Assembly: GCA_019057865.1 (NCBI GenBank)
Contig: JAHLWP010000003.1
Coordinates: forward strand, 64,001 to 128,000
DNA: 64,000 bases
Direction of reading: 5' to 3'
Origin: Promethearchaeota archaeon
GTDB taxonomy: Archaea; Asgardarchaeota; Lokiarchaeia; Sigyniarchaeales; SOKP01
Part shown: one piece after another, positions 7,725-24,433 of the stretch
How positions within the stretch are numbered: position 1 is the stretch's first letter
Layout: every line of letters begins with the position of its first letter
Position numbers and translations under genes: made by a program
Notes under the pieces: generated by a model
What the model saw: the letters and a program-made list of their open reading frames with translations, nothing else
The model's database searches: none
Told to the model about the DNA's origin: nothing

Positions 7725-7829
7725 TAAAAACATTCAAACACTATCTATCTTATTTTAATAATTTAACCCTTTAAATCGTTAGACTTCTATATACATATCC
7801 TTTCCGCCTCTTCTAAGATAATCCATTGC

Positions 7830-7859
7830 TATATGTAGATATACATATATCTACATATA
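7830..7859. promoter_or_regulatory. Perfect 14-bp inverted repeat (candidate operator)
   Basis: TATATGTAGATATA-ca-TATATCTACATATA, about 135 nt upstream of the 7-TM gene at 7994. Confidence 0.4.
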
Positions 7860-7993
7860 ATTCATTTAATAGGAAGAATAACATTTCATTAATATGAATA
7901 AATTAGAAAAAGTTAAATATTCGTATTAAGAATAATAAAGTGATTTATTGAGTTAAAATCAAATATTAATATTCTTGTTGGTGAAATTTCATA

Positions 7994-8698
7994 ATGGTTT
8001 CTCCAGATGGTTGGATTGATGGTATTACTGCCTCAGGTGTGGTAATTTTTGGTATAATCTTTGGTTTATTCTTTTTTTATGTATCAAGAAAAAGGAAAGC
8101 AAAACTTCTTTTATTTTTAGGTTTAGCTAATTTACTTGCAGGTCTAATGTTTTTAGGAGTGTTTTTAGATTTTTTACTGGTTGTAATAACAGAAAATAAT
8201 ATAGATAATTCGAATGGATTGGTTGGAATTCTTAGTTATATATGGTTTGCTCCCACCGTTATTACTGCGATGTATATTGGTACTGAACTCCTTACGCCAA
8301 AGATGAAATGGTATATAATATCTATAATTGCAATTATTAGTATTATTTTTGAAATTGTTATTTTCATGGATCCCTTAAACGCTTTTTATTTTGACGAACC
8401 GACGACGATCCCACCCGAAAGATTAATTGATTATAATGTTAATTTAGATACTATGGCAGGAATGTTAGTAGGGAGCCTATTACTATCTGTATTAATTTTT
8501 CTTGGAATCGGATTTTTATACAAGGCTTTTCAATCTACAGGTGAAATAAAAAGAAAGTTCTATTTCTTATCACTAGGTTCATTATGTTTTTGCATATTTG
8601 GACTTTTAGAAGGTTTAACTGCTCCAGGTTTTATGGTGATTATCGTAAGAATTGGCTACTTGAGTAGTTTTTGGTTTATGTACGTGGGATTAAGATAA
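7994..8698 (+). CDS. Stand-alone 7-TM membrane sensor-like protein (paralog of the 7TM-RING proteins)
   Basis: Seven hydrophobic segments. Shared motifs with the paralogs at 12633, 13876 and 19010: G.L...WF.P, YIG.EL, E/D..LF.DP, LID, KSTG..RKK, VR.G. Ends at GLR, where the paralogs continue. Confidence 0.8.
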   Translation: MVSPDGWIDGITASGVVIFGIIFGLFFFYVSRKRKAKLLLFLGLANLLAGLMFLGVFLDFLLVVITENNIDNSNGLVGILSYIWFAPTVITAMYIGTELLTPKMKWYIISIIAIISIIFEIVIFMDPLNAFYFDEPTTIPPERLIDYNVNLDTMAGMLVGSLLLSVLIFLGIGFLYKAFQSTGEIKRKFYFLSLGSLCFCIFGLLEGLTAPGFMVIIVRIGYLSSFWFMYVGLR

Positions 8699-8799
8699 GA
8701 ATAGCCAAAAATTCAATCTTTTTTTTTTATATAAAGATTTGCTTCGATTCATAAGGCAATAAAATAATTAAACAAGACTTATGATTAGAAATTAAAATA

Positions 8800-9429
8800 T
8801 TACTTTATTCTTAATAGGAGATATTGGAACATACATCCTGCTCTGTTTCTTGCTAAAACTTTTAAGCCATAAGATTTTATTAATCTCTCAAAATCATCTA
8901 AATTATATTTAAATATCCATGCCATATTTTGAGTTTTATTATCATAAGGATTAGGAATATCGACCATGCATTTTCCGGTTGGTTTAAGTACTCTTATAAT
9001 TTCATCGAATACTTGTTTTACATATTCTAATGGGTAATATTCGAACATCCCTATACACGTTACCCAATCAAAGAATTGATCAGGGTAAGGTAATTGATCT
9101 GCCACACAGACTCGAATATCTTTAATATTAAATTCTAAATTATTTTGGTTAATTTTCTGCTTCAATTGTTCAAGCATTTTTGGAGATTGATCAATTCCAT
9201 AACAGAAGCTTCCTAATTTTGCCATTTCAATTAAGAATGTCCCTGTGCCTGTGGCAATATCTAAAACAACTTCATTAGGTTGTACGTGAACTAATTTTTT
9301 AAAGCCGTTATATTCGTTTAATGCATCTTCACTGCTCCACCATTCTTTATCATAGTTATTAGCATGAGTATCATTATATTGCTTACGAAATTTCTTGATC
9401 TCCTCAATCTTCTTTTCTTTCTCTTTCAT
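8800..9429 (-). CDS. Class I SAM-dependent methyltransferase
   Basis: VLDIATGTG, GIDQS, LPYPDQFFD and RVLKPTG motifs. Confidence 0.9.
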   Translation of the reverse strand: MKEKEKKIEEIKKFRKQYNDTHANNYDKEWWSSEDALNEYNGFKKLVHVQPNEVVLDIATGTGTFLIEMAKLGSFCYGIDQSPKMLEQLKQKINQNNLEFNIKDIRVCVADQLPYPDQFFDWVTCIGMFEYYPLEYVKQVFDEIIRVLKPTGKCMVDIPNPYDNKTQNMAWIFKYNLDDFERLIKSYGLKVLARNRAGCMFQYLLLRIK

Positions 9430-9688
9430 TTTAAGATTTTTAAGATATTTAAGATATTTATTTAAAATGATCTACTTATTAAATCATATATCTTATAATT
9501 AAACAACTAGTTTGAATAGTTTTTAATTTATATCTTTAGGATTTAATACCTACTTTTTTCAATAATATTACTAAATATTTGGATCAATAAAAAATAAAAA
9601 AGCGAAAATACAAAATATTATTGAATAAGGATTTTTTTTTTTATTAAAGCATCCTTTTATAAATAGCTGTAAATGGAGGAAATCTAAG

Positions 9689-10738
9689 ATGGAAGAAGAT
9701 ATCATAACCTCGGTTTTATATATTGAGCTTAATGATGAACTTGGACCAAACCCAATTGTTTGTCTTCCTTCTGATTTCTCTCTTGAAAATCAAATGCATA
9801 TAAGTATAAAAGTTATTACAATTCTTTCTGGTGAACATGGTCTGGTTCCAGAATCTCTCGTAATCCTTCCATTTCCTTCACTAAATTTAAAGGGATTGAT
9901 TAAATATATAATTTGGGATGATGAATCTCGTAGAGGTGATATTGGTCAATCTGCTATTACTGTACTTTTTAAAAATGTTGATGACGTTATATTTTATCAA
10001 TATAAGAATAATCTTGAGTTAATTTTTAATGAAATTGCAGCAAAAATCATTAAGTTAGAAAAATCAAAAGCAGATAAGAAATATATTACGAACGAGATAA
10101 AAACACTTGAAAGAGTTATATTAAATGCATTATATGAGTTGAAAGTTAAAGAAACTTCTACTCCAGATATGGAAGCTTTTCCTGAAATATCAAGAAAAAG
10201 TTTTGATTTTATAGATTATAAATTTAAGATAAGCATTTGTGGAGATCCTGGTGTTGGTAAAACTTCTTTAATTTTAAGATTTACTAAAAAAGCGTTTAGA
10301 AGAAAGTACATTCCAACATTAGGAGTCGTGGTTTCAGATCGAGCTTTTAAGATCGACGATTCTGTTGTTCAATTGGTAATTTGGGATATCGCGGGACAAG
10401 TAAAGTTCGAAACCATGAGACGACAGTTTTATCTCGGAACAGATGGGGTTTTCTTAGTATTTGACTTAACTAGCTCTAAATCTTTCGATAGCATTCTAAG
10501 ATGGTATCAAGATATTGAAAACCAATTGAAAAAGACAAGAGAAATTATAGGATTTATAATAGGTAATAAAAATGATTTAATCAATGAAAAAATTGTTGGA
10601 TTTGAACAAGCAAATAAGTTAGCAAATGATCTGAATCTTAACTTTATAGAAACTTCAGCTTTAACAGGAGAAAATGTTGAACAAGCTTTTTATGACATTG
10701 CCAAAACTTTATATGAATCATTAAAGAATGATTTATAA
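9689..10738 (+). CDS. uDENN/longin-like domain fused to Rab-like small GTPase
   Basis: N-terminal ELNDELGPNP motif. C-terminal G1 GDPGVGKT, G2 YIPTLG, G3 WDIAGQ, G4 NKND, G5 TSAL. Confidence 0.85.
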   Translation: MEEDIITSVLYIELNDELGPNPIVCLPSDFSLENQMHISIKVITILSGEHGLVPESLVILPFPSLNLKGLIKYIIWDDESRRGDIGQSAITVLFKNVDDVIFYQYKNNLELIFNEIAAKIIKLEKSKADKKYITNEIKTLERVILNALYELKVKETSTPDMEAFPEISRKSFDFIDYKFKISICGDPGVGKTSLILRFTKKAFRRKYIPTLGVVVSDRAFKIDDSVVQLVIWDIAGQVKFETMRRQFYLGTDGVFLVFDLTSSKSFDSILRWYQDIENQLKKTREIIGFIIGNKNDLINEKIVGFEQANKLANDLNLNFIETSALTGENVEQAFYDIAKTLYESLKNDL

Positions 10739-10777
10739 TAAAAATCCATTCAAAAATTTGATTTCTTTTAAGTTATA

Positions 10778-10803
10778 CTTCGTGAAAGCTGAGTTTCACG
10801 AAG
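10778..10803. promoter_or_regulatory. Perfect 10-bp stem-loop between tandem GTPase genes
   Basis: CTTCGTGAAA-gctgag-TTTCACGAAG, 40 nt after the 10738 stop. Confidence 0.4.
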
Positions 10804-10941
10804 AAAATTCATAGTTATATGAAATAAAAAAAAAGGTTATTTATTCTTCATCTTCTTCTTAAATTATAATAATTTATATAAATTAATCATATATAGTACC
10901 AATTTTTTTTTAATTAAGTTATAAATTTATTGATACTTACG

Positions 10942-11982
10942 ATGGCTAAAGAACTAATAAAAGCAATAATTTTTACAGAATTTGACGAAGAACTTGGACC
11001 AAATCCGGTTTTATGGTACCCTTCTGATTTACCTGAGAGCTTTCGCATGGTAGTTAGTATTAAATCAATTACAATTCTTTCAGCAGACCAAGGATTGATG
11101 CCGAAATCTCTAATCATTATGCCATTTCCCTCATTAAACTCGAAAGGTATAATAAAATATATTGAAAAAGAAGATAAATCTCGCCGCGGTGGTGTTGCTC
11201 AATCATCTATCACTTTACTTTTCAGTGAAATTGATGATCTGATTTTTTATAAATATTTGATCTTTCTAGAACCTGCATTTAATGAAACTACTCAAGAAAT
11301 AATAAAAATAGAAGATATTAAAACAAATAAAGAAATTCTTTCTAATGAAATAGATAATTTACGGACCGAAATTTTAAATATTTTAGAGGACCTCCGAATA
11401 AAAGAACAATCTGTCCTAAAAACTGAAGCTTTTCCTGAAGAACCTGTAGAAGATAAAGAGGTCATAAAATATAAATTTAAAATAGTGGTTTGTGGTGATC
11501 CGGGGGTAGGAAAAACTTCCACTATTTTAAGATTTACTGATAATGCCTTTATACGTACGTATATTCCAACCCTAGGGGTTAATATTAGCGAAAAAAATGT
11601 TAAGATTGATGGAAACTTAGTTGGATTAATTCTCTGGGACATAGCTGGGCAAAGCAAGTTTGAAACAATGAGAAAACATTTCTATAAGGGAACAGAAGCA
11701 GTTATTTTAATATTTGATTTAACAAATTTGAAATCCTTTGAGAGCATACCTAAATGGTATGAAGACATAAAAAAATATGTAATAGCTGATAATAAAATTG
11801 TTGGATTTATCTTAGGAAACAAGGAAGATTTAGAAGATAGTAGAATAATTGCTAAAAAAGATGCTAATAAAATTGCAAAAGAACTTGGCCTTGATTATAT
11901 AGAAACTTCTGCTTTAACTGGAAAAAATGTAGAGTTAAGTTTTCATAAAGTAGCAGAAGCTTTAATTAATTCTAAAAAATAA
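10942..11982 (+). CDS. uDENN/longin-like domain fused to Rab-like small GTPase (tandem paralog)
   Basis: FTEFDEELGPNP; GDPGVGKT, YIPTLG, WDIAGQ, NKED, TSAL. ATG at 10942 preferred over TTG at 10930. Confidence 0.85.
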   Translation: MAKELIKAIIFTEFDEELGPNPVLWYPSDLPESFRMVVSIKSITILSADQGLMPKSLIIMPFPSLNSKGIIKYIEKEDKSRRGGVAQSSITLLFSEIDDLIFYKYLIFLEPAFNETTQEIIKIEDIKTNKEILSNEIDNLRTEILNILEDLRIKEQSVLKTEAFPEEPVEDKEVIKYKFKIVVCGDPGVGKTSTILRFTDNAFIRTYIPTLGVNISEKNVKIDGNLVGLILWDIAGQSKFETMRKHFYKGTEAVILIFDLTNLKSFESIPKWYEDIKKYVIADNKIVGFILGNKEDLEDSRIIAKKDANKIAKELGLDYIETSALTGKNVELSFHKVAEALINSKK

Positions 11983-12001
11983 TGAGAAATCAATTAGAAT
12001 A

Positions 12002-12577
12002 ATGGAATTAGAAGAAATTATATATAAAAGAAGGACTATCAGAAGATTTAAGCAAGATTCAGTTCCATTAGATATATTAAAAAAGCTGATAGATTTTGCT
12101 CGTGTTGCTCCAATGGCAACTAATCGGCAAGCTCTTGAATTTATTATCATTCAGAATGACGAAAGTCGCCAAAAACTATTTCCATTGGTAAATTGGGCAG
12201 CACTTCTACCAAAAAATGAAAGAACTCCTGAGAAGGGAAGAGAACCTACAGCTTATATAATTATTCTTGTAAATACTAAAATAAAAAAAACTTATGTTGA
12301 TTTTGATGTTGGAGCAGCAGTTGAAAATATTCTTCTTGGGGCAGTACATTTTGGATTAGGTTGTTGTTGGATGGGAAGTATTAATGCAAAAAAGATTCGA
12401 GAATTATTTGAGATTCCTGACTATTATGATATAAAGCATGTTATAAGTTTAGGATATCCAGATGAATTAACTATCATTGAACCTTATAAAGGTTCCTTTA
12501 ATTATTGGAAGGATGAAGAAGGTACCATACATGTACCTAAAAGAGATTTAAATGATATAATTTTCAAAATATATTAA
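12002..12577 (+). CDS. Nitroreductase family protein
   Basis: RRTIRRF, AP.ATNRQ, DVGAAVENILL, GLGCCW and LGYP. Confidence 0.9.
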   Translation: MELEEIIYKRRTIRRFKQDSVPLDILKKLIDFARVAPMATNRQALEFIIIQNDESRQKLFPLVNWAALLPKNERTPEKGREPTAYIIILVNTKIKKTYVDFDVGAAVENILLGAVHFGLGCCWMGSINAKKIRELFEIPDYYDIKHVISLGYPDELTIIEPYKGSFNYWKDEEGTIHVPKRDLNDIIFKIY

Positions 12578-12632
12578 TTTTGTATTCAGATTTAAGTTAA
12601 AAGAATTTAGAATTAAATCATATTTATTACAA

Positions 12633-13679
12633 ATGCCTTCTGCTATTGGAGTAATAAATGCTTTAACCGTTATTATATGGTTTACCCTTGGTTTAATATG
12701 GGGGATATTTAGTCTAATTAAATCAAAGAAATCAAAATCATATGTTTTATTTTCTATGGGTTTAGCTGTATTATTTATAAGCTTTTTATATTCAGGTTTG
12801 GTCTTAGATTCATTATTAGTTCTTTTTACAGAGAGCAACTTAGATACAAATATACATGGTATTCTTACATTTTTCTGGTTTGGTCCTTTAGTAATTATAG
12901 GTACCTATATATTTAATGAACTTATTGCGATGAACTTTAAATTATGGTTGAAGTATTTAATTTTAATTTATTTTTCAATAATAAGTATAATCTTTGAAAT
13001 TCTGTTATTTTTAACTCATTCAAGTTCGATCATTTATAAAATTCCCTCAGAACCTGGTCAAGACTTAATTGATAATATCTTAGTTTTTTGGACACCTCCA
13101 TTTTATATGCTGGCAATTTCTTTATTTCCTGGGATTATAGTATTTAGTCTTTCATTTTTATATGGGGGTATTAAATCCTCAGGAATATTAAGAAAGAAAC
13201 TCATATTATTATTAATCACTTTTGCAGTATTTTTTGGTTTTGGTTCTTTAGATATTGCTATTTTCCCTTTAGATTTCTTTAATTTACCTAAAGGTACATC
13301 AATAATTATAATAAGAGTTTTTATGATTATTGGGGGATTTATCTTTTTTTTTAGCTTAAAAGAAGAATCCATTAAAGCTTCCATTAAAAAATTTAAATCT
13401 GAAGAACCATCTCTTATAGATATTTTAACTGAGACTAAATCTAAAGATATATCACAAGAAAAAATCTTAGCATTTCGAGAACAAACAATATGTCTAATCT
13501 GTGAAAGAGAAATACAAGGCTTTATTAAAATTTTCTTATGTCCTCAATGTGAAGCATTATATTGTGAAAGATGCGCACAAAAGATGATAGAAATGAGTAA
13601 TATGTGTTGGATATGTGATGAGCAAATTGACGAATCAAAACCTGTTAAGCAAGATAATGATATATCTGGAAGCCTATAA
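12633..13679 (+). CDS. 7-TM membrane protein with C-terminal C4C4 RING-like zinc finger
   Basis: Seven TMs, then CLIC-x12-CPQC-x4-CERC-x10-CWIC (13491-13616). Confidence 0.8.
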   Translation: MPSAIGVINALTVIIWFTLGLIWGIFSLIKSKKSKSYVLFSMGLAVLFISFLYSGLVLDSLLVLFTESNLDTNIHGILTFFWFGPLVIIGTYIFNELIAMNFKLWLKYLILIYFSIISIIFEILLFLTHSSSIIYKIPSEPGQDLIDNILVFWTPPFYMLAISLFPGIIVFSLSFLYGGIKSSGILRKKLILLLITFAVFFGFGSLDIAIFPLDFFNLPKGTSIIIIRVFMIIGGFIFFFSLKEESIKASIKKFKSEEPSLIDILTETKSKDISQEKILAFREQTICLICEREIQGFIKIFLCPQCEALYCERCAQKMIEMSNMCWICDEQIDESKPVKQDNDISGSL

Positions 13680-13875
13680 TTAAAAGCTATTTTTAAAATG
13701 CTAAAAAAAAGTAATATGACATCTCGCTTTACATTAACGTGAAAAAATTTTTAAGTAAATCGAGCAAAATTAATTATGTAATCTTTTGCAAATTTAGATT
13801 TTGTCATTAAAAAGAAAAACACAAGCTCAAATATAATACTAAATCTACTACTATAATACAAAAAAGGTGTAATAT

Positions 13876-14979
13876 ATTACTTTAACTCCTATTGGACTAT
13901 TTAACGGAATAACAGCAATTATTTGGTATATTACTGGCTTAATTTGGGGTTTCTTTAGTCTCTATAGATATAAAAAATCAAAAGCAGATATTTTATTGTA
14001 TTTTGGCTTAACAATTATATTCATAAGTATGTTTTTCACTGGTATTATTTTAGATTTTTTCACAATCCTCTTTACTGGCAAGAATTTGAATAATACCTCT
14101 GGAATTCATGGTATTTTAACATTTATATGGTTTGCTCCTACTCTCTCATTTGGGATATATATTGGTCTTGAATTTTTGATACCAGGTGTTAAAAAAGAAT
14201 TAAAAAATTCAATATTATTTACTTATATTATTTTAGCAATAATCTTTGATTTATTCCTTTTTTTAGACCCATTTGGTACTGTAGATTATAAGATGCCTTC
14301 AAAATCAGGGGAAAACTTAATTGATAATGTTTTAATTATAGGTTCTCCTGCTTCTATTTTAGTTATGATCTTTTTTGCAACAGCAATACTGTTCTATGTT
14401 GTAAGATTTTTGTATGGATCTGTTAAATCAACAGGTCTCTTAAGAGAGAAATTCACTAGACTAACTATATGTTTTTTTCTCTTAATAGGGTTTGGAACAG
14501 TGGATATTTTATTTTTCCTGCCGACTATAATTTTAATTATTGTTAGATATGGAATGGTTGTTAGTGGACTTTTTTTTGTTTTGGGAGTAAAAAAAGAAGA
14601 AGCGCCAACCAAACCAAAAGAAGTTATTCATGATGATGAAGTTGAGAGTGGAGTCCTAACAACTTCATTATCCAAGGTTTTATCATATTCTAGACCATCT
14701 GATATATCTACAAATGATATTGAGTTATATCGAAAACAAACAATCTGTTTAGTTTGTAAAAAAAAATTAAAAGGATTCATAGACGTTTTTATTTGCCCTA
14801 AATGTAAGTCATTTTATTGTGATAAATGCGCTCAAATATTAACTCAGTTAGAAAATATGTGTTGGTCATGTAATAATCCAATTGACGATTCAAAACCCAT
14901 TAAACCTTTTAAAATTGAAGAAGAAGATATCGATATCAGCATATCAGAAGGATCAAGGAAAACACTCAGAGAGGAATAG
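13876..14979 (+). CDS. 7-TM membrane protein with C-terminal C4C4 RING-like zinc finger (probable ATT start)
   Basis: The frame is open from 13873 and encodes TM1 (PIGLFNGITAIIWYITGLIWG), homologous to the 12633 paralog, upstream of the TTG at 13996. AGGTG SD at 13865. CLVC-x12-CPKC-x4-CDKC-x10-CWSC at 14746-14871. Confidence 0.8.
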   Translation: MTLTPIGLFNGITAIIWYITGLIWGFFSLYRYKKSKADILLYFGLTIIFISMFFTGIILDFFTILFTGKNLNNTSGIHGILTFIWFAPTLSFGIYIGLEFLIPGVKKELKNSILFTYIILAIIFDLFLFLDPFGTVDYKMPSKSGENLIDNVLIIGSPASILVMIFFATAILFYVVRFLYGSVKSTGLLREKFTRLTICFFLLIGFGTVDILFFLPTIILIIVRYGMVVSGLFFVLGVKKEEAPTKPKEVIHDDEVESGVLTTSLSKVLSYSRPSDISTNDIELYRKQTICLVCKKKLKGFIDVFICPKCKSFYCDKCAQILTQLENMCWSCNNPIDDSKPIKPFKIEEEDIDISISEGSRKTLREE

Positions 14980-15129
14980 CACATAATAATAGTCACATAA
15001 TAATTATAAATAAATGAAATTAAGATTACATAAAAAGAAATAAAATATTTAAATATATAATATAAATTTTAAAATAAATTAAATTAATCATTAAAAAACT
15101 AAATTATTTAAAAAAAGAGAGAGATTTAT

Positions 15130-15396
15130 ATGCGAATAACAGTTGAGGATTCACGAACAGGTAAAGTTATTAAACTTGATGTTAAGGAACATCATACAAT
15201 TGAAAGGATTATAGACATAATTGTAAAGCATATGGGCATTATTAGTGCTGAGGAACGTGCATACACTTTAGTATTAAATGGAAAGGAGTTACCTACAACA
15301 ATAACCATCGAGGATTCTGTCCATAAATTTGGTTTAAAAGAAAACGACAAATTAGCCTTATGGGCAAGAGTCATAGGGGGTTATTATAAACATTAA
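15130..15396 (+). CDS. Ubiquitin-like modifier precursor
   Basis: Ubiquitin-like pattern (MRITV..TGKVIKLDV..HTI..LVLNGKEL..GLKEND.L.L) ending RVIGG followed by YYKH. Confidence 0.9.
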   Translation: MRITVEDSRTGKVIKLDVKEHHTIERIIDIIVKHMGIISAEERAYTLVLNGKELPTTITIEDSVHKFGLKENDKLALWARVIGGYYKH

Positions 15397-15471
15397 ATTA
15401 TTTTTTAATTGGAGATAATACAAAGGTTTTCCAATTATTAAAGTTAAGATTAAGAACGATATTTAACTTTT

Positions 15472-16029
15472 CTAATCTATGATGACTATGTCATCCTTTT
15501 CTTCCTCTTCTTCTTCAATTTTGAATTCTCTCTTGAGGTCTTCCATAGTATTTTGCTTAAAAAAATTTGCTGCTTCTAAACAGACATCATATTTTAATGG
15601 ATCATCTGGATTAGGATTCTCCACTAATTTTTGCAAGGCTTTGACGGTAGTCTCTAAATCTGTAAGTCTTGACCATTTTTTTAGAATGTTTAAACAAATA
15701 TAGCCAGTTCCAGATTCGTAACGCAAGGGGGCTTTAGCAGGATGAATATTGGGATGAAATATATTTGATTGCCAAGAGAATCTAATACCTCCAGGATATG
15801 GAAAAGCTCTATTTAGTTCCAAATGAATTTGATGATCTTTCTGAGGAACAATATCAATTCCTTCCTTAAAAGTACCCATAATAAAACCTAAGGCTTTTAA
15901 ATTGATTAAAAACTTAACACTATTATCACTTTGAATTATTGAATTCGTATCGATAACGTTTAAGCTTTTTAAACTTTTAATTTCATTTTCAATCCTATTT
16001 TTCCAAATTTCTAAAGGAAGTTCTGGCAT
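15472..16029 (-). CDS. Ubiquitin-conjugating enzyme E2 (UBC fold)
   Basis: RI.NE, FPY, IFHPNI...GYICLNILKKW and NPNPDDPL; acidic C-terminal tail. Confidence 0.92.
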   Translation of the reverse strand: MPELPLEIWKNRIENEIKSLKSLNVIDTNSIIQSDNSVKFLINLKALGFIMGTFKEGIDIVPQKDHQIHLELNRAFPYPGGIRFSWQSNIFHPNIHPAKAPLRYESGTGYICLNILKKWSRLTDLETTVKALQKLVENPNPDDPLKYDVCLEAANFFKQNTMEDLKREFKIEEEEEEKDDIVIID

Positions 16030-16124
16030 CTTTTTAAAATTAAAAATCTCATTAAGTTACATATTGATATTTTCTTTCTTTATATTTATAATAATCATTT
16101 TTTATTTTGAAATGGATTTAATCT

Positions 16125-17003
16125 TCATTTATTATCCTTATAAGAACATGTCCAACAATCTGGATTCTTTAACTTTTCAATAACTTCAAATTTATTTATT
16201 AGTCCATTGTAATTTAATTGTTTTCCTATTAGTGGTTCACCAATATGAGGATTCCATTTACCTTGTTCCTTAAAATGATCATTTCCTAATATAAATTTTA
16301 TTACTTGTTGAGATTGAATTCCTCCAATAATAGAAGTTGTAGTAATTATAGTTGCAATTTTACTAATAGTAGCTCCATTCGAAGATTCGATTTCTTCTCC
16401 CGTACAGGAAAACTTTAACCACATTAGATCTAGATCAGCGCCAGAAATCCCGCATTGCAAACAAGCAGCATCAGCAACTCCAGAATAAACAGCTTGGACT
16501 GATCCAAAGAATTCATCAATTCCAGAATCAATAAAAGGTACTTGATAATAATAAGCATAATTATTTGCTTCAAGTCTAGCTTCAACATTATCAAGACAAG
16601 AGCAAATCACATCCACTTGTTTATACAAATCTTTATCTATCTCATTAAGAGCTTTCTTTATTGTTAAAATTTTAACTTCAGGGTTGAGTTTTTCACACGC
16701 TGCTTTAATGATATCTACTTTATATTTATTTTCTACTTTATTTTCCATATTAAACAAAATACATCGATTAAGATTAGATTTTTCAATAATATCATAATCA
16801 ATAATAATTAACTTTCCAATTCCACTCAAGCATAAATTTTTAGCGACTTCGTTACCGGTTGCACCAACCCCTATTATCATTACCGTCGCATTTGAGATCT
16901 TATTTTGGTCCCATCCAGCAATTCGTTTCTGCCGATCATACTTATCGTCATTTATATCCTCCTCTCCTAAGAATTTATATTCATTATCACTATTTTCTGT
17001 CAT
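16125..17003 (-). CDS. Ubiquitin-activating enzyme E1 (ThiF/MoeB family)
   Basis: YDRQ, GVGATG, DYDIIEKSNLNR, LDNVEAR, Zn pairs CLQC/CWTC, candidate catalytic Cys in FSCTG. Confidence 0.92.
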   Translation of the reverse strand: MTENSDNEYKFLGEEDINDDKYDRQKRIAGWDQNKISNATVMIIGVGATGNEVAKNLCLSGIGKLIIIDYDIIEKSNLNRCILFNMENKVENKYKVDIIKAACEKLNPEVKILTIKKALNEIDKDLYKQVDVICSCLDNVEARLEANNYAYYYQVPFIDSGIDEFFGSVQAVYSGVADAACLQCGISGADLDLMWLKFSCTGEEIESSNGATISKIATIITTTSIIGGIQSQQVIKFILGNDHFKEQGKWNPHIGEPLIGKQLNYNGLINKFEVIEKLKNPDCWTCSYKDNK

Positions 17004-17021
17004 AATTTTACAGGACTATTT

Positions 17022-17540
17022 CTACTTGATAATGGCATAACTAATTTCTTTATACCCATTTTCGGATTGATCATTTAAAGTAAAAAATTTAAATTCATCT
17101 CTAATTGGATCAACAACTAAAGCTACATGATACGATCTATTAAAAATTAAGCTTTGCGTAGTTAAATCAACACTACTTAAAAAGCATCCAATATTTGGAT
17201 GGGAATGCCACCATCCTAAATTTAGTAAGTTTTCATTATTTTGATCTAATTTCAATTTATCATATTCCTCCGAATATTTAGAAAATTCAAATTGAATATT
17301 ATTTATTATTCCTTTTTCTCCTGATTCTTGAAATGAAAATTCATTTGCTATGAAAGCTTCCTTTATGTAAAGATAATGATTTAATAAAATATATTTCTGT
17401 TTATTCCAAATGTAGCGTTCTCCAACTAAATAACCAAAAACTTCATTTACATTTTCTTTACATATCTTTTTAATCCCTTCTATTACTTCTTTAGTAATAT
17501 ATAATGGAAATACGTAATTCTCGTCAATTGTCATAATCAT
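17022..17540 (-). CDS. JAB/MPN+ (JAMM) metalloprotease / deubiquitinase
   Basis: EVFGYLVG ... GWWHSHP..GCFLSSVD..TQ ... ALVVDP (Rpn11/AMSH-like). Confidence 0.92.
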   Translation of the reverse strand: MIMTIDENYVFPLYITKEVIEGIKKICKENVNEVFGYLVGERYIWNKQKYILLNHYLYIKEAFIANEFSFQESGEKGIINNIQFEFSKYSEEYDKLKLDQNNENLLNLGWWHSHPNIGCFLSSVDLTTQSLIFNRSYHVALVVDPIRDEFKFFTLNDQSENGYKEISYAIIK

Positions 17541-17568
17541 GAAATTTTATTGATTTTAAGTATCTATA

Positions 17569-18492
17569 TTAGTTTGATTTTTCTATTTCAGAAACTTCCT
17601 TTTGTTTCATTTGAATTTTATTATAAATAGAATTTTTTAGAATTTCATTCATTATTATAAAAATATTTTTAGCTGAATCTTCTTGGATTGCTGTAAATCC
17701 ATATGTCTTTGCACCAAAAGTTTCTTGAATTTCTTTAGGGTCGAAAGATGTTTCTTTTAAATCCTGAAAATTGGCAATAATATAAAAATCTGCTTTCAGA
17801 ACCTTCTTCTTTAGTTTTAAATATAATTTTTTAGTTCTTCTTAAATTACTTGCTGCTGAATTAGTTATAATACAGATAATGTCGCATATGTTTAACAAAG
17901 ATTTATAGTGCTTTGAATTACTTATTAAATCTTCTAAATCAATTTCTTTCAAGATAAATTGCTTTATATTTCCTAGATTTGTTATATCAACTGGTTTTTC
18001 AATTATTTCAGTCATATCATCATCTATATCTAAAACAGTCTCTCCAGGAAATAAATCCATGATAGTAGTTTTTCCTACACCAATTTCTCCAACAAATAAT
18101 ACTTTTGGGGAAATAAAAATATATTCTTCAACAAATTCATCAAAACTTTCGAATATCTTAGTTTTACCTGTCCAGTTCTCTAGATATGTTTGGTATCTAT
18201 TGATAAACTCATTTTTCATTAATTCAACTTTTTCTCTCACTTCATCTTCCAAATCTTCTATATCTGTTACAATGACAAATATACAATCAAATTCAGAAGA
18301 ATAGGAATATATAAATTTGAAATTTTTAAAGTTAAGTGATTTTATTTCACCAACTTTAACTGCTTTAGCAAATCCACTAATTGCTGTAAGGAAGCCGCTA
18401 ATTAAATCATCTTCTACTTCACTGGGTCTTATATAATTCTTTGAATAACATAGTATCCCTCCTTTTGCGATAACGTAAATTCTTGATATCAT
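17569..18492 (-). CDS. Longin-like domain fused to degenerate small GTPase
   Basis: N-terminal IYVI..GG.LCYSK..DLISGFLTAISGFAK longin pattern. G1 GEIGVGKTT; no DxxG; G4 NFQD; G5 FTAI. Confidence 0.8.
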   Translation of the reverse strand: MISRIYVIAKGGILCYSKNYIRPSEVEDDLISGFLTAISGFAKAVKVGEIKSLNFKNFKFIYSYSSEFDCIFVIVTDIEDLEDEVREKVELMKNEFINRYQTYLENWTGKTKIFESFDEFVEEYIFISPKVLFVGEIGVGKTTIMDLFPGETVLDIDDDMTEIIEKPVDITNLGNIKQFILKEIDLEDLISNSKHYKSLLNICDIICIITNSAASNLRRTKKLYLKLKKKVLKADFYIIANFQDLKETSFDPKEIQETFGAKTYGFTAIQEDSAKNIFIIMNEILKNSIYNKIQMKQKEVSEIEKSN

Positions 18493-18580
18493 CTTCTCGC
18501 TTTGGTAAATTAGGTTAATGTTTTTATACTGAGTATGCCGGAATTTAATTGTCGGGGCAACTCAATATACATCCATTTTA

Positions 18581-18620
18581 ATTTAATTTAAGATAATAAG
18601 ATTAATTAAAATGATTATGA
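18581..18620 (-). promoter_or_regulatory. Conserved 40-bp upstream element, copy 1
   Basis: 36/40 identical to 22800-22839; both copies lie upstream of paralogous longin-GTPase genes. Confidence 0.6.
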
Positions 18621-18681
18621 AAAATATATATAAATATAATTAAAAAGTTTGAAACTATAGAAAAATATCAAGGGAGCTCTT

Positions 18682-18843
18682 ATGCATGATAAACAAAATG
18701 GTGATTCATATCCAACAATAGTAAAAACAAAAAAGAAAGGAATAATAGAGCGCAAACCTCCAAATGACAAAATTATTTTTTACAAATTCACCAAGACAGA
18801 AGAAGCAAATGAAACAAAAACAGAAGAAAATAATGGTACTTAA
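18682..18843 (+). CDS. Possible 53-aa small protein (not in ORF track)
   Basis: ATG 18682 to TAA 18843 (MHDKQNGDSYPTIVKTKKKG...EENNGT) with GGGAG upstream. Confidence 0.3.
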   Translation: MHDKQNGDSYPTIVKTKKKGIIERKPPNDKIIFYKFTKTEEANETKTEENNGT

Positions 18844-19009
18844 AAAAACTCGTAAATATAAATTCAAAATGGAATAAAGCTATATTTAAGCATTAAGGAT
18901 ATTAAAAAAAAGGGGAATTTATAAAATTAGACATACTTGTAACAATTTTTATATTAATATAAAAAAGAGATAATTACAATAGAAATTATAAAGAAATATA
19001 TTTAAAAAG

Positions 19010-20083
19010 GTGGATCCGAAATTGCTTTCTGATGTAGGTTGGCTTAATGTTATCTCAATAATGGGCATTTTTATATTTGGCTGCTCTTTTGGATTATACT
19101 TTATGTATCAAGGTAGAAAGACTAACGTTAAACTCCTTTTTTATATGGGTTTGGGTATCCTTTTTAATGGTCTTTGGTATTGGGGAAATTTTTGGGAGTC
19201 GTTATCAATTCTTATCACAGGTGAAAATTTTGATAATGTATCAGGTATAAATGTACCATATGAATTACAGGCTATTATGAGCTTTATTTGGGTACCTTTA
19301 ACAATAATTTTTGTTGTGTATGTAGGTGGTGAGCTCCTAATACCTAAAAGAAAATGGTACATTGTAGGGTTTATTATATTTTTAACACTTGTATGGGAAT
19401 TGTTTCTTTTTTTAGATCCATTAGGATCTATATCAATTTATGTTCCCACAGTACCAGGTGAAGATCTCGTTGATGAAGATTTTATTATTAATTCTCTTTT
19501 ATACTTCATTGGTTTCTTATTCTCACTTACGAGCTTACTATTTCTTGGAATTGGTTATTTAATTAAAAGCATTAAATCAACAGACATATTAAGAAAAAAA
19601 TATTTTTATTTAGCAATTGGCTTTATTTTAAATCCCATGTTTGGAATGATTGAGGGATCAGGTATTATTGGTGTTGGTCTATTTTTAGTAAGAATTGGTA
19701 TGTCTTTTACTTTTTTATTGTATTACTTGGGTTTAAGAGAAGAACCCGCTAAAATTAAAATAGTACCTACTGAAAAAGAAGTTAAAATTGAAGATTCAAT
19801 ATTTAGGATTGCTAAAAAACCTGCCCAAATAACTGAAGAAGAAGTTACTTATTATAGAGAGCAGAAAATATGTTTAGTATGTAAAGGTAAGGCAGGGGGT
19901 TTCAATACGTATATTTGTACTGGATGTGATGCTTTATACTGTGAAAACTGTGCACGCGCATTATCCAGTATGGAAAATGTTTGTTGGGCCTGTAATGAGC
20001 CAATTGACAAGGAAAAACCTTCAAAACCATTTAAGATTGAGGGAGAAGAAGCTAAAGTTAAGGAAAAAGACAAGAAAATCTAA
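19010..20083 (+). CDS. 7-TM membrane protein with C-terminal C4C4 RING-like zinc finger
   Basis: Seven TMs; CLVC-x11-CTGC-x4-CENC-x10-CWAC (19871-19993); shared tail PID..KP.KPFKIE. Confidence 0.82.
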   Translation: MDPKLLSDVGWLNVISIMGIFIFGCSFGLYFMYQGRKTNVKLLFYMGLGILFNGLWYWGNFWESLSILITGENFDNVSGINVPYELQAIMSFIWVPLTIIFVVYVGGELLIPKRKWYIVGFIIFLTLVWELFLFLDPLGSISIYVPTVPGEDLVDEDFIINSLLYFIGFLFSLTSLLFLGIGYLIKSIKSTDILRKKYFYLAIGFILNPMFGMIEGSGIIGVGLFLVRIGMSFTFLLYYLGLREEPAKIKIVPTEKEVKIEDSIFRIAKKPAQITEEEVTYYREQKICLVCKGKAGGFNTYICTGCDALYCENCARALSSMENVCWACNEPIDKEKPSKPFKIEGEEAKVKEKDKKI

Positions 20084-20149
20084 AAAATTTTTTCATATTA
20101 AATTTAAATTGATCGTTCAAGATCTTCTTGAATATATATGATTTATTAA

Positions 20150-22765
20150 TTACCTTGTACTTTGTATAAATCTCTTATCTTTTTTTCGTTCTTTTTCCCA
20201 TTTTTTACGTTCTGAACGTAATTTAAAGAGATCCACATCTTTAAAAATCATGTTCTCTTCTTTAGGTGGTATTATTCTTTCAATACGCTCTTTTTCTGGT
20301 GTGTAAATGAGAGATTCTCCGAATTCAGCGATATTTACAAAGAAACAATAAGCATATATTGACCTCCGGGCATCAAAATGGGCTGCTTTAAAATCAGCTG
20401 TAACGGGAGTAAAGGCTGGATTGAACATTAAGTCTATTGGAGGTTCAAAATTCTTAAGTTCAACTCTGAGATCCATATCAAGAAAATCTCTACATATAGC
20501 TATTGCCATTCTACCAAATTCGGTATTACATATAATAGTTTGTCTTGGTACTGCTTCTGTCTTGATACCTTCTTTAAATCTTTTTCCTTTAAAATGTATA
20601 ATTGCTGGAATATGTTTTTCTTGCTCCCAAAGAATTCCATCTGGACTAAAAACTGCACTTATATTTTGCCTAGTTTCTTTATTGTGATATGATCCCGGGA
20701 TTATGTACATTTCATATAATTTGGCAAAATTAGATATATCCTCAAGAAATTTACCATAATTGAGGTCAATGGACATTTCTGGAAAAATGAGGATATTTAC
20801 ACTGCTAGCATGGGCTTTTTCTATCATATCCTTAATCTTAGATCTAATCACATCAATTTTGTCTTTACGGAGTCCTAACAAACCAGGAGTTTTTTCTTTA
20901 TAGAATTCTTTTAAATAATCCCCAGTACTAGATACTCCTATTTGAGCAATACCCACTCTACATTCTCTTCTTTGAATTTTTGGATACTCTTTTAATAAAT
21001 CTCTATAAATTAGTTTATATTTTCTATTTTTACCCCTTTTTTCCACTTCTTTTTTCGGAGTTGGTTGCGGAATTGATGGTACCAATAAATCTAAAGTATT
21101 TTTGGATATAGAAGGTTCGCTGATTGTACCTAATGCAGAAATTATTATTTTCTCTTCTTTCTCTATTAAATTCAAGCGATCTATGACTTCCTTTTCTCTA
21201 TCGTTATATCCTGCTTTACCAAATAGTTCAGCTGCAGATTTTAATACGCCAGATCCAATTTTTAAAAGTTTTTTCTTTTCTTCAAGATTTAATTCTTCAT
21301 CTGCTCTGATTATATACCAAGTAGCATCAAAATAAGTAGAAGTAGCAAGAGCCCAATTTGCCTCACTTTTAAACTCACCCTTTTGATACAAATTTGCAGC
21401 ATTTCTTAACATCATTTTAATTTTTGGATAAAATTCTGCCTTGATAGATGTGTCGCCTGCCTTATCAAATTTACAACCTAAACCTAATGCTTGACAAAAA
21501 GCAGAATTTCCTAAAGCTAATGACTTTAGTTTACTATTCGTGAAATGTTTACTAGCTTTAGTAAATAACTCTGCTGCTTCTGAATATCTTTCAGGGTCTT
21601 CATATTCTTCAGCACATTCCATAGCCTCCCATGCTCTACAAAGAAAAGAAATGGCAGTAAGTTCTTCTACATCTTGTTCGAATTCTACTCTTGAGCACAT
21701 GTCTTTAAATTGAGTAGCAGCACAAGAAAATTTTTCTGCAGCCGCAAGATGCTCACCTTTTCTTTCTAAAATTCTTGCTTTTTCTATTTGATCCCAAATA
21801 TCTACATAATCAACCTTCTCATATTCAGCTTTTTCTTCACTATAAAAGACAGGTTCTTCTTCTATTGTGAGGATATGTTTCTTTTCTATTTTATCTAAAA
21901 TAGAAATTTTTAGTATTTCTTTTATTATAAAAATTATTTTAGTTTTAGATTCCTCTTTAATTGCTGTAAAGCCAAAAGTTTTAATTCCAAGCGTTTCTTC
22001 TATTTTTTCAGGCTCAAATGCAACATCTTTCAAATCTTGAAAGTTTGCTAGAAGATAAAAGTCATTTTTCTTTACTTCAGGTTTTAATTCTGAGACTAAA
22101 GTCTTTGTTCGACCCAAATTACTTGCCGCTGAATTCGTAACAATAAGTACAACATCAACAGATTTTAATAAGTTTTTGTATAGATGCGGATTATAGGTCA
22201 GTTCTTCCATATTAATTTCTTGTATAATACATTGATGTATTCCCTTTAAATTATCTAAATTAATAGGTTTTTGAATAACCTCATTTAAATTATCATCAAT
22301 TTCCAAAATAGTGTCACCAGGAATTAAATCCATAATTGTTGTTTTTCCTACACCATCTTCTCCAGTTAATAAGATCCTAGGTGGAATAAATACATTTTCA
22401 TCCACAAAATCATCAAAATCTTCAAAAACACTAACATTTCCTGTCCAATTCTCTAAAAATGGTCTATATCTTATTATGAATTCATTTTTCATCAGTTCAA
22501 GTTTAGTTCTTGTTTCTTGTACAAAATCATCTTTATCAATTACAATAACAAAGATGCAATCAAATTCAAATGAGTAAGAATATATAAACTTAAAATTTCT
22601 AAAATTAAGGGCTTTTACTTCACCCCCTTTAATTTCTTTGGCAAAATCACTAATAGCTTTCAGAAATCCACTAATAACTGTTTCATCTATATCAATCTGC
22701 TCAAAAAAATTCTTAGAATAACAGAGAATTCCTCCTCTCGCAATAATGAAAATTTTTAATATCAT
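20150..22765 (-). CDS. Longin + degenerate GTPase + TPR/SNAP-like helical repeats + carbon-nitrogen hydrolase (nitrilase) fusion
   Basis: The first ~290 aa are paralogous to 17569..18492. Ala/Glu-rich helical repeats follow. The C-terminus has VGIAQ, IFPEMS (E), QEKHIP (K) and AICRDF (C). Confidence 0.82.
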   Translation of the reverse strand: MILKIFIIARGGILCYSKNFFEQIDIDETVISGFLKAISDFAKEIKGGEVKALNFRNFKFIYSYSFEFDCIFVIVIDKDDFVQETRTKLELMKNEFIIRYRPFLENWTGNVSVFEDFDDFVDENVFIPPRILLTGEDGVGKTTIMDLIPGDTILEIDDNLNEVIQKPINLDNLKGIHQCIIQEINMEELTYNPHLYKNLLKSVDVVLIVTNSAASNLGRTKTLVSELKPEVKKNDFYLLANFQDLKDVAFEPEKIEETLGIKTFGFTAIKEESKTKIIFIIKEILKISILDKIEKKHILTIEEEPVFYSEEKAEYEKVDYVDIWDQIEKARILERKGEHLAAAEKFSCAATQFKDMCSRVEFEQDVEELTAISFLCRAWEAMECAEEYEDPERYSEAAELFTKASKHFTNSKLKSLALGNSAFCQALGLGCKFDKAGDTSIKAEFYPKIKMMLRNAANLYQKGEFKSEANWALATSTYFDATWYIIRADEELNLEEKKKLLKIGSGVLKSAAELFGKAGYNDREKEVIDRLNLIEKEEKIIISALGTISEPSISKNTLDLLVPSIPQPTPKKEVEKRGKNRKYKLIYRDLLKEYPKIQRRECRVGIAQIGVSSTGDYLKEFYKEKTPGLLGLRKDKIDVIRSKIKDMIEKAHASSVNILIFPEMSIDLNYGKFLEDISNFAKLYEMYIIPGSYHNKETRQNISAVFSPDGILWEQEKHIPAIIHFKGKRFKEGIKTEAVPRQTIICNTEFGRMAIAICRDFLDMDLRVELKNFEPPIDLMFNPAFTPVTADFKAAHFDARRSIYAYCFFVNIAEFGESLIYTPEKERIERIIPPKEENMIFKDVDLFKLRSERKKWEKERKKDKRFIQSTR

Positions 22766-22799
22766 AGCAGATCTCTATTTTTATCTATATTTTTACTTA

Positions 22800-22839
22800 A
22801 TTTAATATTAGATAATAAGATTAATTAAGATAATTATGA
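22800..22839 (-). promoter_or_regulatory. Conserved 40-bp upstream element, copy 2
   Basis: ATTTAATATTAGATAATAAGATTAATTAAGATAATTATGA, near-identical to 18581-18620. Confidence 0.6.
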
Positions 22840-22866
22840 GAGTAATTATAAGGAAAATTAAATAAA

Positions 22867-23430
22867 TCAGCTTTTACCTTGCAATTCTAAGAATAATGCC
22901 TTATATTTATTATATAATTCTCTGATTATTACTTGAAAGGCCTGAGATACTCCTTCACCTGTTTTTGCTGATGTTCTATAATATTCAAGAAAATTTCCTT
23001 TTTTCATAATTTTTAAAATCTTTGTATCTACCAAATTCTCTTTATCAACTAAATCAACTTTATTAGCAAATACCACGATGGGAATATCACCACAAAATTT
23101 AAGAATATCATCATGCCAATTTGGTATATGCTTGAGACTATTTTTACCAAGATCATTTTCTTCAAGCGAATATACAATAATAGCTGCTTTGCTATCTCTA
23201 TAGAAGGAGGGTCGTAAGAAATGAAACTCATCTTGACCCGCAATATCCCAGAAAAAAAGCTCACAAAAGTCTCCATCTATTTCCATTTCATATATAGAAA
23301 ACTGTGCTCCAATAGTTTTGATGTATTCCTCTTGAAAATTACCTTCTGTAAATTTTTGTATTAAGGATGTTTTCCCTACTTGCCCATCTCCAATAACAGT
23401 TATTTTAAATACAAATTTTTGCCTTTTCAT
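22867..23430 (-). CDS. Rab-like small GTPase
   Basis: GDGQVGKT, YIKTIG, WDIAGQ, NKVD and TSAK; no C-terminal Cys prenylation motif. Confidence 0.92.
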   Translation of the reverse strand: MKRQKFVFKITVIGDGQVGKTSLIQKFTEGNFQEEYIKTIGAQFSIYEMEIDGDFCELFFWDIAGQDEFHFLRPSFYRDSKAAIIVYSLEENDLGKNSLKHIPNWHDDILKFCGDIPIVVFANKVDLVDKENLVDTKILKIMKKGNFLEYYRTSAKTGEGVSQAFQVIIRELYNKYKALFLELQGKS

Positions 23431-23635
23431 CTTTTAGCTAAATGTCTTTGGTAAATTCCAACTATATATAAATATCTTATTAATTTTTCATTATAGAATT
23501 TTTGATCAATTATAAATATCGAACTTTTCTTAATATAAAATTTGATATATGGATAAAAATTTAATAAAACTTTACATAATGATATTGTAATAATGAAAAA
23601 AGGAATATTAAGTTTTAAACTAAAAGGGAATAAGA

Positions 23636-24433
23636 ATGGTTAAAAGAACAGAAGATAGAATGGAAATATTATTTGGATTTTTTGGCACATTAGTCTCATT
23701 TATTTTATTGATTGCAGCAGTATTTCTTTCTCCTGGATATAATCCATTAATAGACGCTGTAAGTTCATTAGGAAAAAGAGAAGCAAAAACATTATTTAGT
23801 ATTAGTTTTGTTGTAGGAGGATCATTAAGTATTCCTTTTTTTATCTTTCTCGAACGAGAATTAATTAATATAAAGGAAAGTATTAGAAGGCTCGCAACAG
23901 GAGTATCAATATTTACATGCGTATGCATCGCGCTAGTAGGAATAATTCCAGATGAAACATATTGGGACATATTTCAAATATTTCACGGTTTTGTTGCTGT
24001 TGTTAGTTTTTCAGGATCATCAATATATATTGTACTTTATAGTATACTTATGTATAACGGGCCTAAATCAAAAATGTATAAAGGTCCAACATTTAAAAAA
24101 TATCATGCATATTTTGGCTTTAGCAACGGTGTTGTATTGATAATACTTTTAATTATGTTCCTTATAAAAACCCCCTTTACACCCTTTATAGAATGGATAT
24201 TGACAATTTTAATGTTTTCATGGATTCTAATTACAGCACTTCAATTAATATCATATAAATTTTTCAATATTCCTGGAGTTTATTATAAACGGGTTCAATA
24301 TCCTGAGGCTTTAAAATTGTTCGAAGATGCACTCCAGATTTTAAATAACCTTAATTTAAGTGATGAACCTATAACCCAGACTCTTAATGAAAATATAGAG
24401 TTCCTAAGAACACAATTAGAAAAAGAAAATTAG
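23636..24433 (+). CDS. DUF998-like multi-TM membrane protein with C-terminal TPR-like helices
   Basis: PGYNP...VSSLG, VGIIP, IFHG..A and EW pattern; tail YPEALKLFEDALQI. Confidence 0.7.
   Translation: MVKRTEDRMEILFGFFGTLVSFILLIAAVFLSPGYNPLIDAVSSLGKREAKTLFSISFVVGGSLSIPFFIFLERELINIKESIRRLATGVSIFTCVCIALVGIIPDETYWDIFQIFHGFVAVVSFSGSSIYIVLYSILMYNGPKSKMYKGPTFKKYHAYFGFSNGVVLIILLIMFLIKTPFTPFIEWILTILMFSWILITALQLISYKFFNIPGVYYKRVQYPEALKLFEDALQILNNLNLSDEPITQTLNENIEFLRTQLEKEN

Follow-up and report, generated by a model that had tools for sequence, protein, structure and literature searches.

Up to now, ubiquitin systems of Asgard archaea have been treated as soluble and compact cascades, which are often encoded beside genes of the ESCRT machinery (endosomal sorting complex required for transport). 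The cascade of ubiquitin (Ub), an E1-like and an E2-like protein and a small RING finger protein of Caldiarchaeum subterraneum has been reconstituted in vitro, and its pro-ubiquitin is processed by Rpn11 (PMC5654768). A Helarchaeial E1/E2/RING cascade has been reconstituted as well, in a work that also notes a Hodarchaeial Ub cluster in which Yip1 and a Rab-like GTPase are encoded (bioRxiv 10.1101/2023.07.25.550441). GTPases of the Rag family fused to a longin domain are also known (bioRxiv 10.1101/2020.10.19.343400). Here we describe a locus at positions 7994–23430 of a stretch of 64,000 nucleotides (nt), called the window in the following, from contig JAHLWP010000003.1 of a Promethearchaeota archaeon, whose genome has 4.26 Mb, is 99.7% complete and has a G+C content of about 29%. 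The locus encodes a ubiquitin-like protein (Ubl), an activating enzyme (E1), a conjugating enzyme (E2) and a JAMM protease next to proteins with seven transmembrane helices (7TM) and several small GTPases. A first-pass annotation of the sequence had proposed that it codes for a receptor-coupled ubiquitination pathway tied to GTPase switches.

Among known systems the Caldiarchaeum/Asgard operon comes closest; it likewise co-encodes a Ubl precursor extending past Gly-Gly, a JAMM/Rpn11-type protease, an E1, a UBC-type E2 and a RING protein. Whereas the RING protein of the known operon is small and soluble, the RING domains in the window are the tails of 7TM proteins of 327–367 amino acids (aa) and occur in several paralogues; there is no small RING gene within the locus. 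The enzyme operon in the window is, moreover, headed by a gene for a longin-GTPase, there are no ESCRT genes near the locus, and its enzymes represent a third, accessory E1/E2 set. We regard it as probable that the locus encodes an accessory, lineage-restricted Ubl system of one Promethearchaeota (Lokiarchaeia-type) family, with membrane-bound sensor-RING proteins as ubiquitin ligases (E3) and a longin-GTPase as regulator.

The strongest support for the idea of a receptor-coupled system is the finding that the 7TM module is combined with exchangeable outputs. A search with the 348-aa 7TM-RING protein 1 gave 17 matches, mainly near-identical ones, and an exhaustive profile search was needed to see the family. 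The latter returned 650 cluster representatives with E values up to 0.001, and among the matches listed the module is N-terminal in 150 of 150 (of the 650). According to Pfam scans of the longer matches, in P0036, P0047, P0087 and P0120 it is followed by the histidine kinase domains HisKA and HATPase_c, with a PAS domain in one protein and without in three, and in P0019, P0044 and P0049 by TIR_2. The kinase-fused homologues match the 7TM profile with E values of 1e-46 to 1e-65, and one of the kinase fusions comes from a Lokiarchaeota metagenome-assembled genome (MAG). Two 7TM-TIR_2 genes were verified in genomes of the same family as the window's (L143:472-1695 and L144:367-1605). A structure search of the Atlas detected this module by itself and in fusion with TIR_2, and it also gave bacterial HisKA_7TM kinases and cyclases as structural neighbours, with template modeling scores of 0.5–0.6 to the HisKA_7TM proteins; the HisKA_7TM family (PF16927) matches 2/26 members (best E value 1.1e-4). 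Variants fused to kinase or TIR domains are absent from the genome of the window, which has four RING-bearing and three bare copies. Since the same module heads histidine kinases, TIR proteins and RING proteins, we conclude from these domain combinations that it is an input domain of the sensor type whose outputs can be exchanged. The receptor-type role given to it by the first-pass annotation is supported in this sense.

The full-length model of 7TM-RING protein 1 (predicted local distance difference test score, pLDDT, of 82) has seven transmembrane helices and one short external β-hairpin. On the RING side the loops are rich in Lys and Arg, and according to the positive-inside rule, read from the sequence, this puts the RING on the cytoplasmic side and the N-terminus on the external one. 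As in the HisKA_7TM histidine kinases, the 7TM module is N-terminal and the output comes after the final helix, in the cytoplasm; unlike in these kinases the output in the window is a RING finger and not HisKA/HATPase_c, and there is no response regulator. The PDB matches of the model are G protein-coupled receptors, but we do not adopt homology to these, as the values obtained (Foldseek E value about 1e-3 and template modeling score 0.38–0.5; VIA Z 11–13 with a root-mean-square deviation, rmsd, of 4.2–4.5 Å) are those of any helical bundle. DRY or NPxxY motifs were not seen in the 7TM sequence.

Pairwise comparison and alignment of the Cys motif agree with the earlier description of four paralogous 7TM proteins, three of them with a RING-type tail. 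The last three of these proteins end in an eight-ligand motif with the pattern C-x2-C-x10-12-C-x2-C-x4-[CH]-x2-C-x10-C-x2-C, of which 7/8 positions are invariant in the alignment. Hydrophobic positions of the E2-contact type are also conserved, namely [IV] before Cys2 and an invariant Trp after Cys7. When the isolated tail of 7TM-RING protein 1 was modeled (pLDDT 90) and used in a Foldseek search, the top 50 matches were all RING E3 domains, with an rmsd of 1.6–2.2 Å over about 50 residues to RNF165, RNF38, EL5 and RNF13. An independent VIA search with the same model had RING or U-box domains at the top (Z 4.4–5.6), and a profile search of the PDB sequences with the tail listed RNF4 first (1.1e-5). 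In addition, the homologue P0064, which has the same 7TM module, is matched by zf-C3HC4_3 with 36.8 bits and thereby exceeds the cut-off. On the strength of these fold searches, the PDB profile match and the result for P0064 we accept that the modeled tail has a RING fold. Because this fold comes together with adjacency to the Ubl gene and a strict co-occurrence with the E2 (see below), the tails are likely to be the E3s of this cascade. The proposal that the 7TM-RING proteins are E3s is thus likely as far as fold, gene adjacency and co-occurrence go; the activity itself we infer. The predicted complex of the E2 (residues 1–170) with the RING tail (residues 272–345) and two zinc ions scored 0.31 against a mark of 0.32, was run without controls and counts neither way.

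Up to 24 copies of the RING tail were found per genome, mostly on membrane domains; some paralogues are on unrelated domains with 9–10 transmembrane helices or on soluble 590-aa zinc-ribbon proteins. A cytoplasmic RING on a membrane anchor is also the architecture of Hrd1, gp78, the MARCH family, RNF13/RMR and RNF152, which work at membrane surfaces, but the membrane parts of these proteins have no detectable sequence relationship to those in the window, and the eukaryotic polytopic RING E3s are not built on a sensor module of the two-component type. RNF152 is a membrane-anchored RING protein that ubiquitinates RagA, a GTPase of the longin/roadblock type, and parallels the GTPase link in the window. 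Burroughs, Iyer and Aravind are said to have described in 2011 prokaryotic RING-like treble-clef domains beside Ubl, E1, E2 and JAB genes, and some bacterial versions of Prok-RING_1 (PF14446) have transmembrane helices. Prok-RING_1 matches 14/26 of our tails weakly, all below the cut-off. To our knowledge neither the fusion to a 7TM sensor nor the link to a longin-GTPase was part of that RING description. Our literature search, which was incomplete, found no description of 7TM-sensor-RING fusions and no report of a longin-GTPase gene inside a ubiquitin operon. As a side observation, contig 9 of the window's genome has an open reading frame (ORF) for a soluble RING-like protein of 73 aa (L142:5577-5798, minus strand; weak match to the tail profile, 3.6e-7). 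About 0.8 kb away lies a gene for a 165-aa protein (L142:6638-7135, plus strand); in an alignment this protein is 29% identical to the operon GTPase's longin domain.

The neighbourhoods of the E2 gene were compared for 28 family genomes and for 70 species loci that were found with an E2 alignment. The core order is a longin-GTPase gene or its fused form of about 870 aa, followed by JAB, E1 and E2, and this run converges on the Ubl gene. In 55/58 evaluable loci the longin-GTPase or fused gene is directly upstream of JAB, with a median gap of 43 nt; the longin-GTPase, which had been noticed at the head of the JAB-E1-E2 run, is an integral member of the operon. In 29/55 loci a RING-tail gene lies on the same strand as the Ubl gene and upstream of it, at a distance of at most 700 nt. 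Fifteen of these 29 genes have a recognizable 7TM domain, and the others code for proteins with 9–10 transmembrane helices or for the soluble 590-aa zinc-ribbon proteins. A gene of the Rab type followed by the gene of the fused protein is seen again in relatives, and a block of 7TM, one or two N-domain-Rab genes, nitroreductase and 7TM-RING genes is found in at least 11 species. The Rab and N-domain-Rab genes are truly linked, though in part of the family only. Dozens of species share the arrangement seen in the window, so that the clustering goes far beyond what chance would produce. The linkage of 7TM-RING and GTPase genes to the ubiquitin genes, on which the earlier proposal had been built, is conserved in related genomes.

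Beyond the family, E2 relatives with 31–36% identity are present in MAGs of Micrarchaeota (DPANN), where E1 and JAB genes are nearby (L132-L137); these loci are without longin-GTPase or RING genes. They bear on the origin of the accessory system. In some relatives (L057/G109, L043/G211 and L045/G138) the E2 gene contains in-frame stops or, in G138, is separated from E1 by an insertion of 2.6 kb. The stops and the insertion are hints that the system is decaying in some lineages.

The 7TM family is present in 38/40 genomes of this family and in 0/160 others sampled in the phylum. The E2 of the window is a single-copy gene found in 29/61 genomes of the family (one fixed sample). When the same 61 genomes were searched with the RING-tail profile, all 29 genomes with the E2 also had RING tails (none had the E2 alone), 21 had neither and 11 had RING tails only. 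Among the latter 11, 7 are less than 90% complete and two have weak matches. Both states occur within five genera, so the association of E2 and RING tails does not rest on a single split. We had considered that this could be the only E2 of the genome, which was dropped when two further UQ_con genes with scores twice as high were found. One of them is part of a co-directional canonical operon on contig 41 (L141:7074-10171) with the order Ub (110 aa), E1 (411 aa), E2 and JAB (278 aa), and the other lies on contig 18 beside a 528-aa E1 (L140:6277-9265). The canonical E2 is present in 60/61 genomes of the family with 70–90% identity, and both other E2 types are near-universal in the family; the RING tails therefore track the E2 of the window and not the canonical one. 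Because a separate canonical Ub-E1-E2-JAB operon and a further E1/E2 pair exist elsewhere in the genome, the system in the window is, as judged from gene content, a third, accessory and faster-evolving Ubl system with a patchy distribution.

The enzymes of this system look active, since catalytic motifs and Gly-Gly are conserved in their sequences. Gly-Gly is kept in 65/65 Ubl homologues, and 54/65 have a variable tail of 1–11 aa past it, as expected for a pro-peptide that is removed. In the E2 the HPN motif (H92-P93-N94) and C112 are invariant across 25 sequences, and its profile matches UBE2C and UBE2N. The profile of the E1 is closer to the adenylation domain of Uba1 (1.4e-27) than to MoeB (8e-17) or ThiF (about 1e-16). 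In the protease the JAMM motif HSHPx6SSVD is intact, and HSHPNIGCFLSSVD was read in the sequence (E...HxH...S..D type). A further feature of the E2 is its C-terminus (window 15472-15560), where an acidic run is followed by a hydrophobic stretch (EEEE..DDIIIID) in 25/25 homologues. This resembles the β-strand motif of the SUMO-interacting motif type and might predict non-covalent binding of the Ubl or of a partner.

The longin-GTPase of the operon and the N-terminal part of the 871-aa protein are 58% identical, and the P-loop is intact, with G135, G138, G140 and K141 invariant in G1. Like the longin-fused GTPases of other Asgard archaea they combine a probable longin domain with a G domain, an architecture found in 277/301 genomes of the phylum; by contrast, the clade that is linked to the operon is restricted to this family, has lost DxxG and has NFQD in place of NKxD in G4 (N241 and D244 kept), with SA of G5 retained. 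The G domain has a weak resemblance to Arf/Arl, and the nearest Atlas clusters, at 0.98, are Arf, Ras, Roc and Gtr1_RagA domains. With a profile of the N-terminal domain longin folds came first (AP-2 sigma 4.4e-3, VAMP7 0.03–0.2); Fuz_longin_1 matches 4/19 members (best 6.7e-5), and Longin also matches few. In the 871-aa protein about 290 aa of helical repeats separate the longin-GTPase from a domain of the nitrilase superfamily, which as an isolated domain is matched by CN_hydrolase with 24.6 bits (cut-off 23.2) and is closest to the nitrilases of defence-associated reverse transcriptases (RT; PADLOC, 7.6e-14). In many relatives a gene of this 871-aa type, preceded by a Rab gene, stands directly upstream of JAB-E1-E2 and replaces the short longin-GTPase.

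The genes of the locus, which were identified by Pfam and profile searches and by reading the ORFs over the whole region, are listed in Table 1.

Table 1. Genes of the locus with their positions in the window
Gene product	Position	Strand	Evidence or remark
RING-less 7TM protein, 234 aa	7994..8698	+	34% identity to residues 6–248 of the 348-aa 7TM-RING protein 1
SAM-dependent methyltransferase	8800..9429	-	Methyltransf_11 2e-21
N-domain (~175 aa) + Ras/Rab-type GTPase	9689..10738	+	Ras 1.1e-47
Second N-domain + Ras/Rab-type GTPase	10930..11982	+	Ras 1e-47; 51–58% identical to first copy
Nitroreductase	12002..12577	+	Nitroreductase 2.3e-28
7TM-RING protein 1, 348 aa	12633..13679	+	7TM model, RING tail model
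7TM-RING protein 2, ~367 aa	13876..14979	+	Directly upstream of Ubl gene; probable ATT start
Ubl precursor, 88 aa	15130..15396	+	Ends RVIGG-YYKH; Rad60-SLD 1e-3, below cut-off
Divergent UBC-type E2	15472..16029	-	UQ_con 46 bits vs cut-off 27
Compact E1, 292 aa	16125..17003	-	ThiF 163 bits, 9.9e-48
JAMM/MPN+ metalloprotease	17022..17540	-	JAB 41.6 bits
Longin-GTPase, 307 aa	17569..18492	-	Heads JAB-E1-E2 operon
7TM-RING protein 3, 357 aa	19010..20083	+	Divergently oriented to longin-GTPase gene
Fusion of 871 aa: longin-GTPase + helical region + C-N hydrolase (nitrilase superfamily)	20150..22765	-	
Free Ras/Rab-type small GTPase	22867..23430	-	Ras 4.9e-42; upstream of 871-aa gene

The 15 genes were found where the first-pass annotation had placed them, and its identification of the Ubl, E1, E2 and JAMM genes, of the free GTPase and of the two longin-GTPases agrees with the Pfam and profile searches. 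The three Ras-family G domains of the locus are matched with E values of 1e-42 to 1e-47. Two proteins had been described as fusions of a uDENN-like domain with Rab. Their C-terminal Ras family domain is clear (1e-47), but uDENN as the identity of the N-domain was not confirmed, as there was neither a Pfam match nor a match to PDB profiles and the Atlas scores were 0.80–0.82; a weak Atlas lead points to NPR2/longin. The tandem pair of these N-domain-Rab genes is also present in related loci, where the RING-less 7TM gene ends the block; the RING-less protein of the window has no Pfam match. The nitroreductase had been taken for a mere interruption of the locus. This could not be upheld, because its gene is syntenic in at least 11 related species, sitting between the N-domain-Rab and 7TM-RING genes. 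The methyltransferase, on the other hand, is absent from the related loci, and its position in the neighbourhood is not conserved. Rfam and tRNA scans of positions 7000–24500 found nothing. A protein with a Macro domain (ADP-ribose binding or hydrolysis) is encoded 4.5 kb upstream of the locus at 2860-3480 among housekeeping genes (TBP, PPDK).

At 13860-13996 of the window, the gene of 7TM-RING protein 2 has a conserved first helix without an ATG, GTG or TTG start. The ATT at position 13876 sits 6 nt behind GGTG, and the gene of the closest relative has the same open frame; judging from the sequence, translation probably starts at this ATT. A similar case is the E2 gene on contig 18 (L140:8759-9265, minus strand), where 69 N-terminal residues matched by UQ_con precede the first canonical start. 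Both genes lack an early canonical start, a hint that non-canonical initiation is recurrent in the genome of the window.

Taken together these data are consistent with the following mechanism. The Ubl would be made with a short variable tail past Gly-Gly, which the JAMM protease would trim; probably the protease also deconjugates the Ubl. The compact Uba1-like E1 would then activate the Ubl, and the divergent UBC-type E2 would carry it on Cys112 next to its HPN motif. The E3 activity would be supplied by C-terminal RING tails, which form an expanded family carried mostly on polytopic membrane domains, and in the window by three copies with the RING on a 7TM module in N-out/C-in orientation. 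Since Lokiarchaeial histidine kinases and TIR proteins use the 7TM module as their input domain as well, the 7TM-RING proteins appear to be built like one-component sensors, whose output would be the ubiquitination of putative substrates at the cytoplasmic face of the membrane. The longin-GTPase, which is probably co-transcribed with JAB, E1 and E2, most likely acts on the cascade as a regulator or adaptor under nucleotide control. A more far-reaching version, in which the 7TM-RING proteins are E3s gated by a stimulus, with a sensor of the two-component type driving ubiquitination and the longin-GTPase gating the set of E1, E2 and deubiquitinating enzyme, we put forward only tentatively and with more doubt than confidence.

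Several observations weigh against this mechanism. The tails in the window stay below every Pfam RING cut-off (16–19 bits versus 27–29), score alike on the C1_2/DC1, RING, Prok-RING_1, PHD and B-box models, have a PHD-like ligand spacing (C-x2-C-x4-[CH]-x2-C) and are without the basic linchpin residue behind the last Cys. About half of the Ubl loci have no adjoining RING gene. One genome (G113), which is 100% complete, has three 7TM-RING genes and no E2 of this type and is a real exception to the co-occurrence, for which related genomes are in any case non-independent samples. The external loops of the 7TM module are neither specially conserved nor hypervariable. Finally, the operon-linked clade of the longin-GTPase has EIDLED in place of the G3 motif DxxG; with DxxG lost, this GTPase may not cycle. 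Some of these points would be explained if the Cys-rich tails were a binuclear zinc finger of another kind (DC1/C1, PHD or FYVE-like) with a lipid or a protein as its binding partner, the cascade being E3-less or using an E3 that we did not recognize. Besides the low Pfam RING scores, the PHD-like spacing and the Ubl loci without RING gene, it fits this explanation that 26/26 tails match C1_2 weakly and that one homologue is named 'DC1 domain-containing' by NCBI. We nevertheless consider it very improbable, as only RING or U-box domains were at the top of the fold searches, the positions of the E2-contact type are conserved, the tails are present in 29/29 genomes with this E2, and their genes repeatedly adjoin the Ubl gene on the same strand. 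Fold and co-occurrence alike make it unlikely that the tails do not belong to an E3.

If the tails are indeed E3s, the polytopic domain could still serve another purpose than sensing. The eukaryotic ligases Hrd1, Doa10/MARCH6 and MARCH recognize membrane proteins as substrates for turnover or quality control, and the proteins described here might be membrane RING E3s of the same kind. The presence of the RING tails on unrelated membrane domains or zinc-ribbon proteins and their high copy number (up to 24) look like a radiation of substrate adaptors, and the model has no extracellular ligand-binding domain, its external element being the short β-hairpin alone. We think this explanation unlikely all the same: a 7TM module that also stands as the input at the N-terminus of TIR proteins and of histidine kinases, whether or not these have a PAS domain, is an architecture for signal transduction rather than for capturing substrates, and a system present in 29/61 genomes is odd for housekeeping. 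It is somewhat less probable again that the locus functions in conflict or against viruses, in analogy to the defence operons of bacteria that encode Ubl, E1, E2 and JAB (Bil, CBASS Cap2/Cap3), as a system in which the sensors would detect infection or envelope damage and viral or host proteins would be marked. Its patchy, accessory distribution with gain or loss within genera and its expanded and divergent paralogues would suit such a function, as would the fusion of the same 7TM module to TIR domains of the TIR_2/ThsB-like type, the relationship of the nitrilase domain of the 871-aa protein to the defence-associated RT nitrilases, and the generic Cap2/Cap3 matches of E1 and JAB in PADLOC. 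In that search, however, only the generic ThiF and JAB parts match, and the E2, the Ubl, the longin-GTPase and the 7TM-RING proteins have no match. The flanks, moreover, are housekeeping genes (TBP, PPDK, EamA transporter) and not a defence island, the order of the neighbourhood is stable across genera, the external loops lack the hypervariability of a conflict system, and the E1 resembles Uba1 more than it does the bacterial systems. The accessory Ubl system with sensor-RING E3s and a longin-GTPase regulator is therefore the account that we retain as probable.

To the known Asgard cascades the locus adds a second-tier, accessory cascade in one Lokiarchaeial family, a radiated repertoire of putative E3s and RING domains that are physically fused to the module which sensor kinases use as input. 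It is also, as far as our incomplete literature search goes, the first conserved operon link found between a longin-GTPase and ubiquitin enzymes, two 'eukaryotic signature' modules that are usually reported scattered. The system is confined to one family, and its role may be signalling, turnover or defence. 'Receptor-type' ubiquitination in archaea becomes testable with in vitro assays of the Caldiarchaeum type, because all parts are small and there are no partners still to be identified. If the 7TM-RING proteins turned out to be stimulus-gated E3s, this would be the first prokaryotic ubiquitin signalling pathway of the receptor type, and it would provide an Asgard precedent for the coupling of membrane sensing, small-GTPase switches and ubiquitin.

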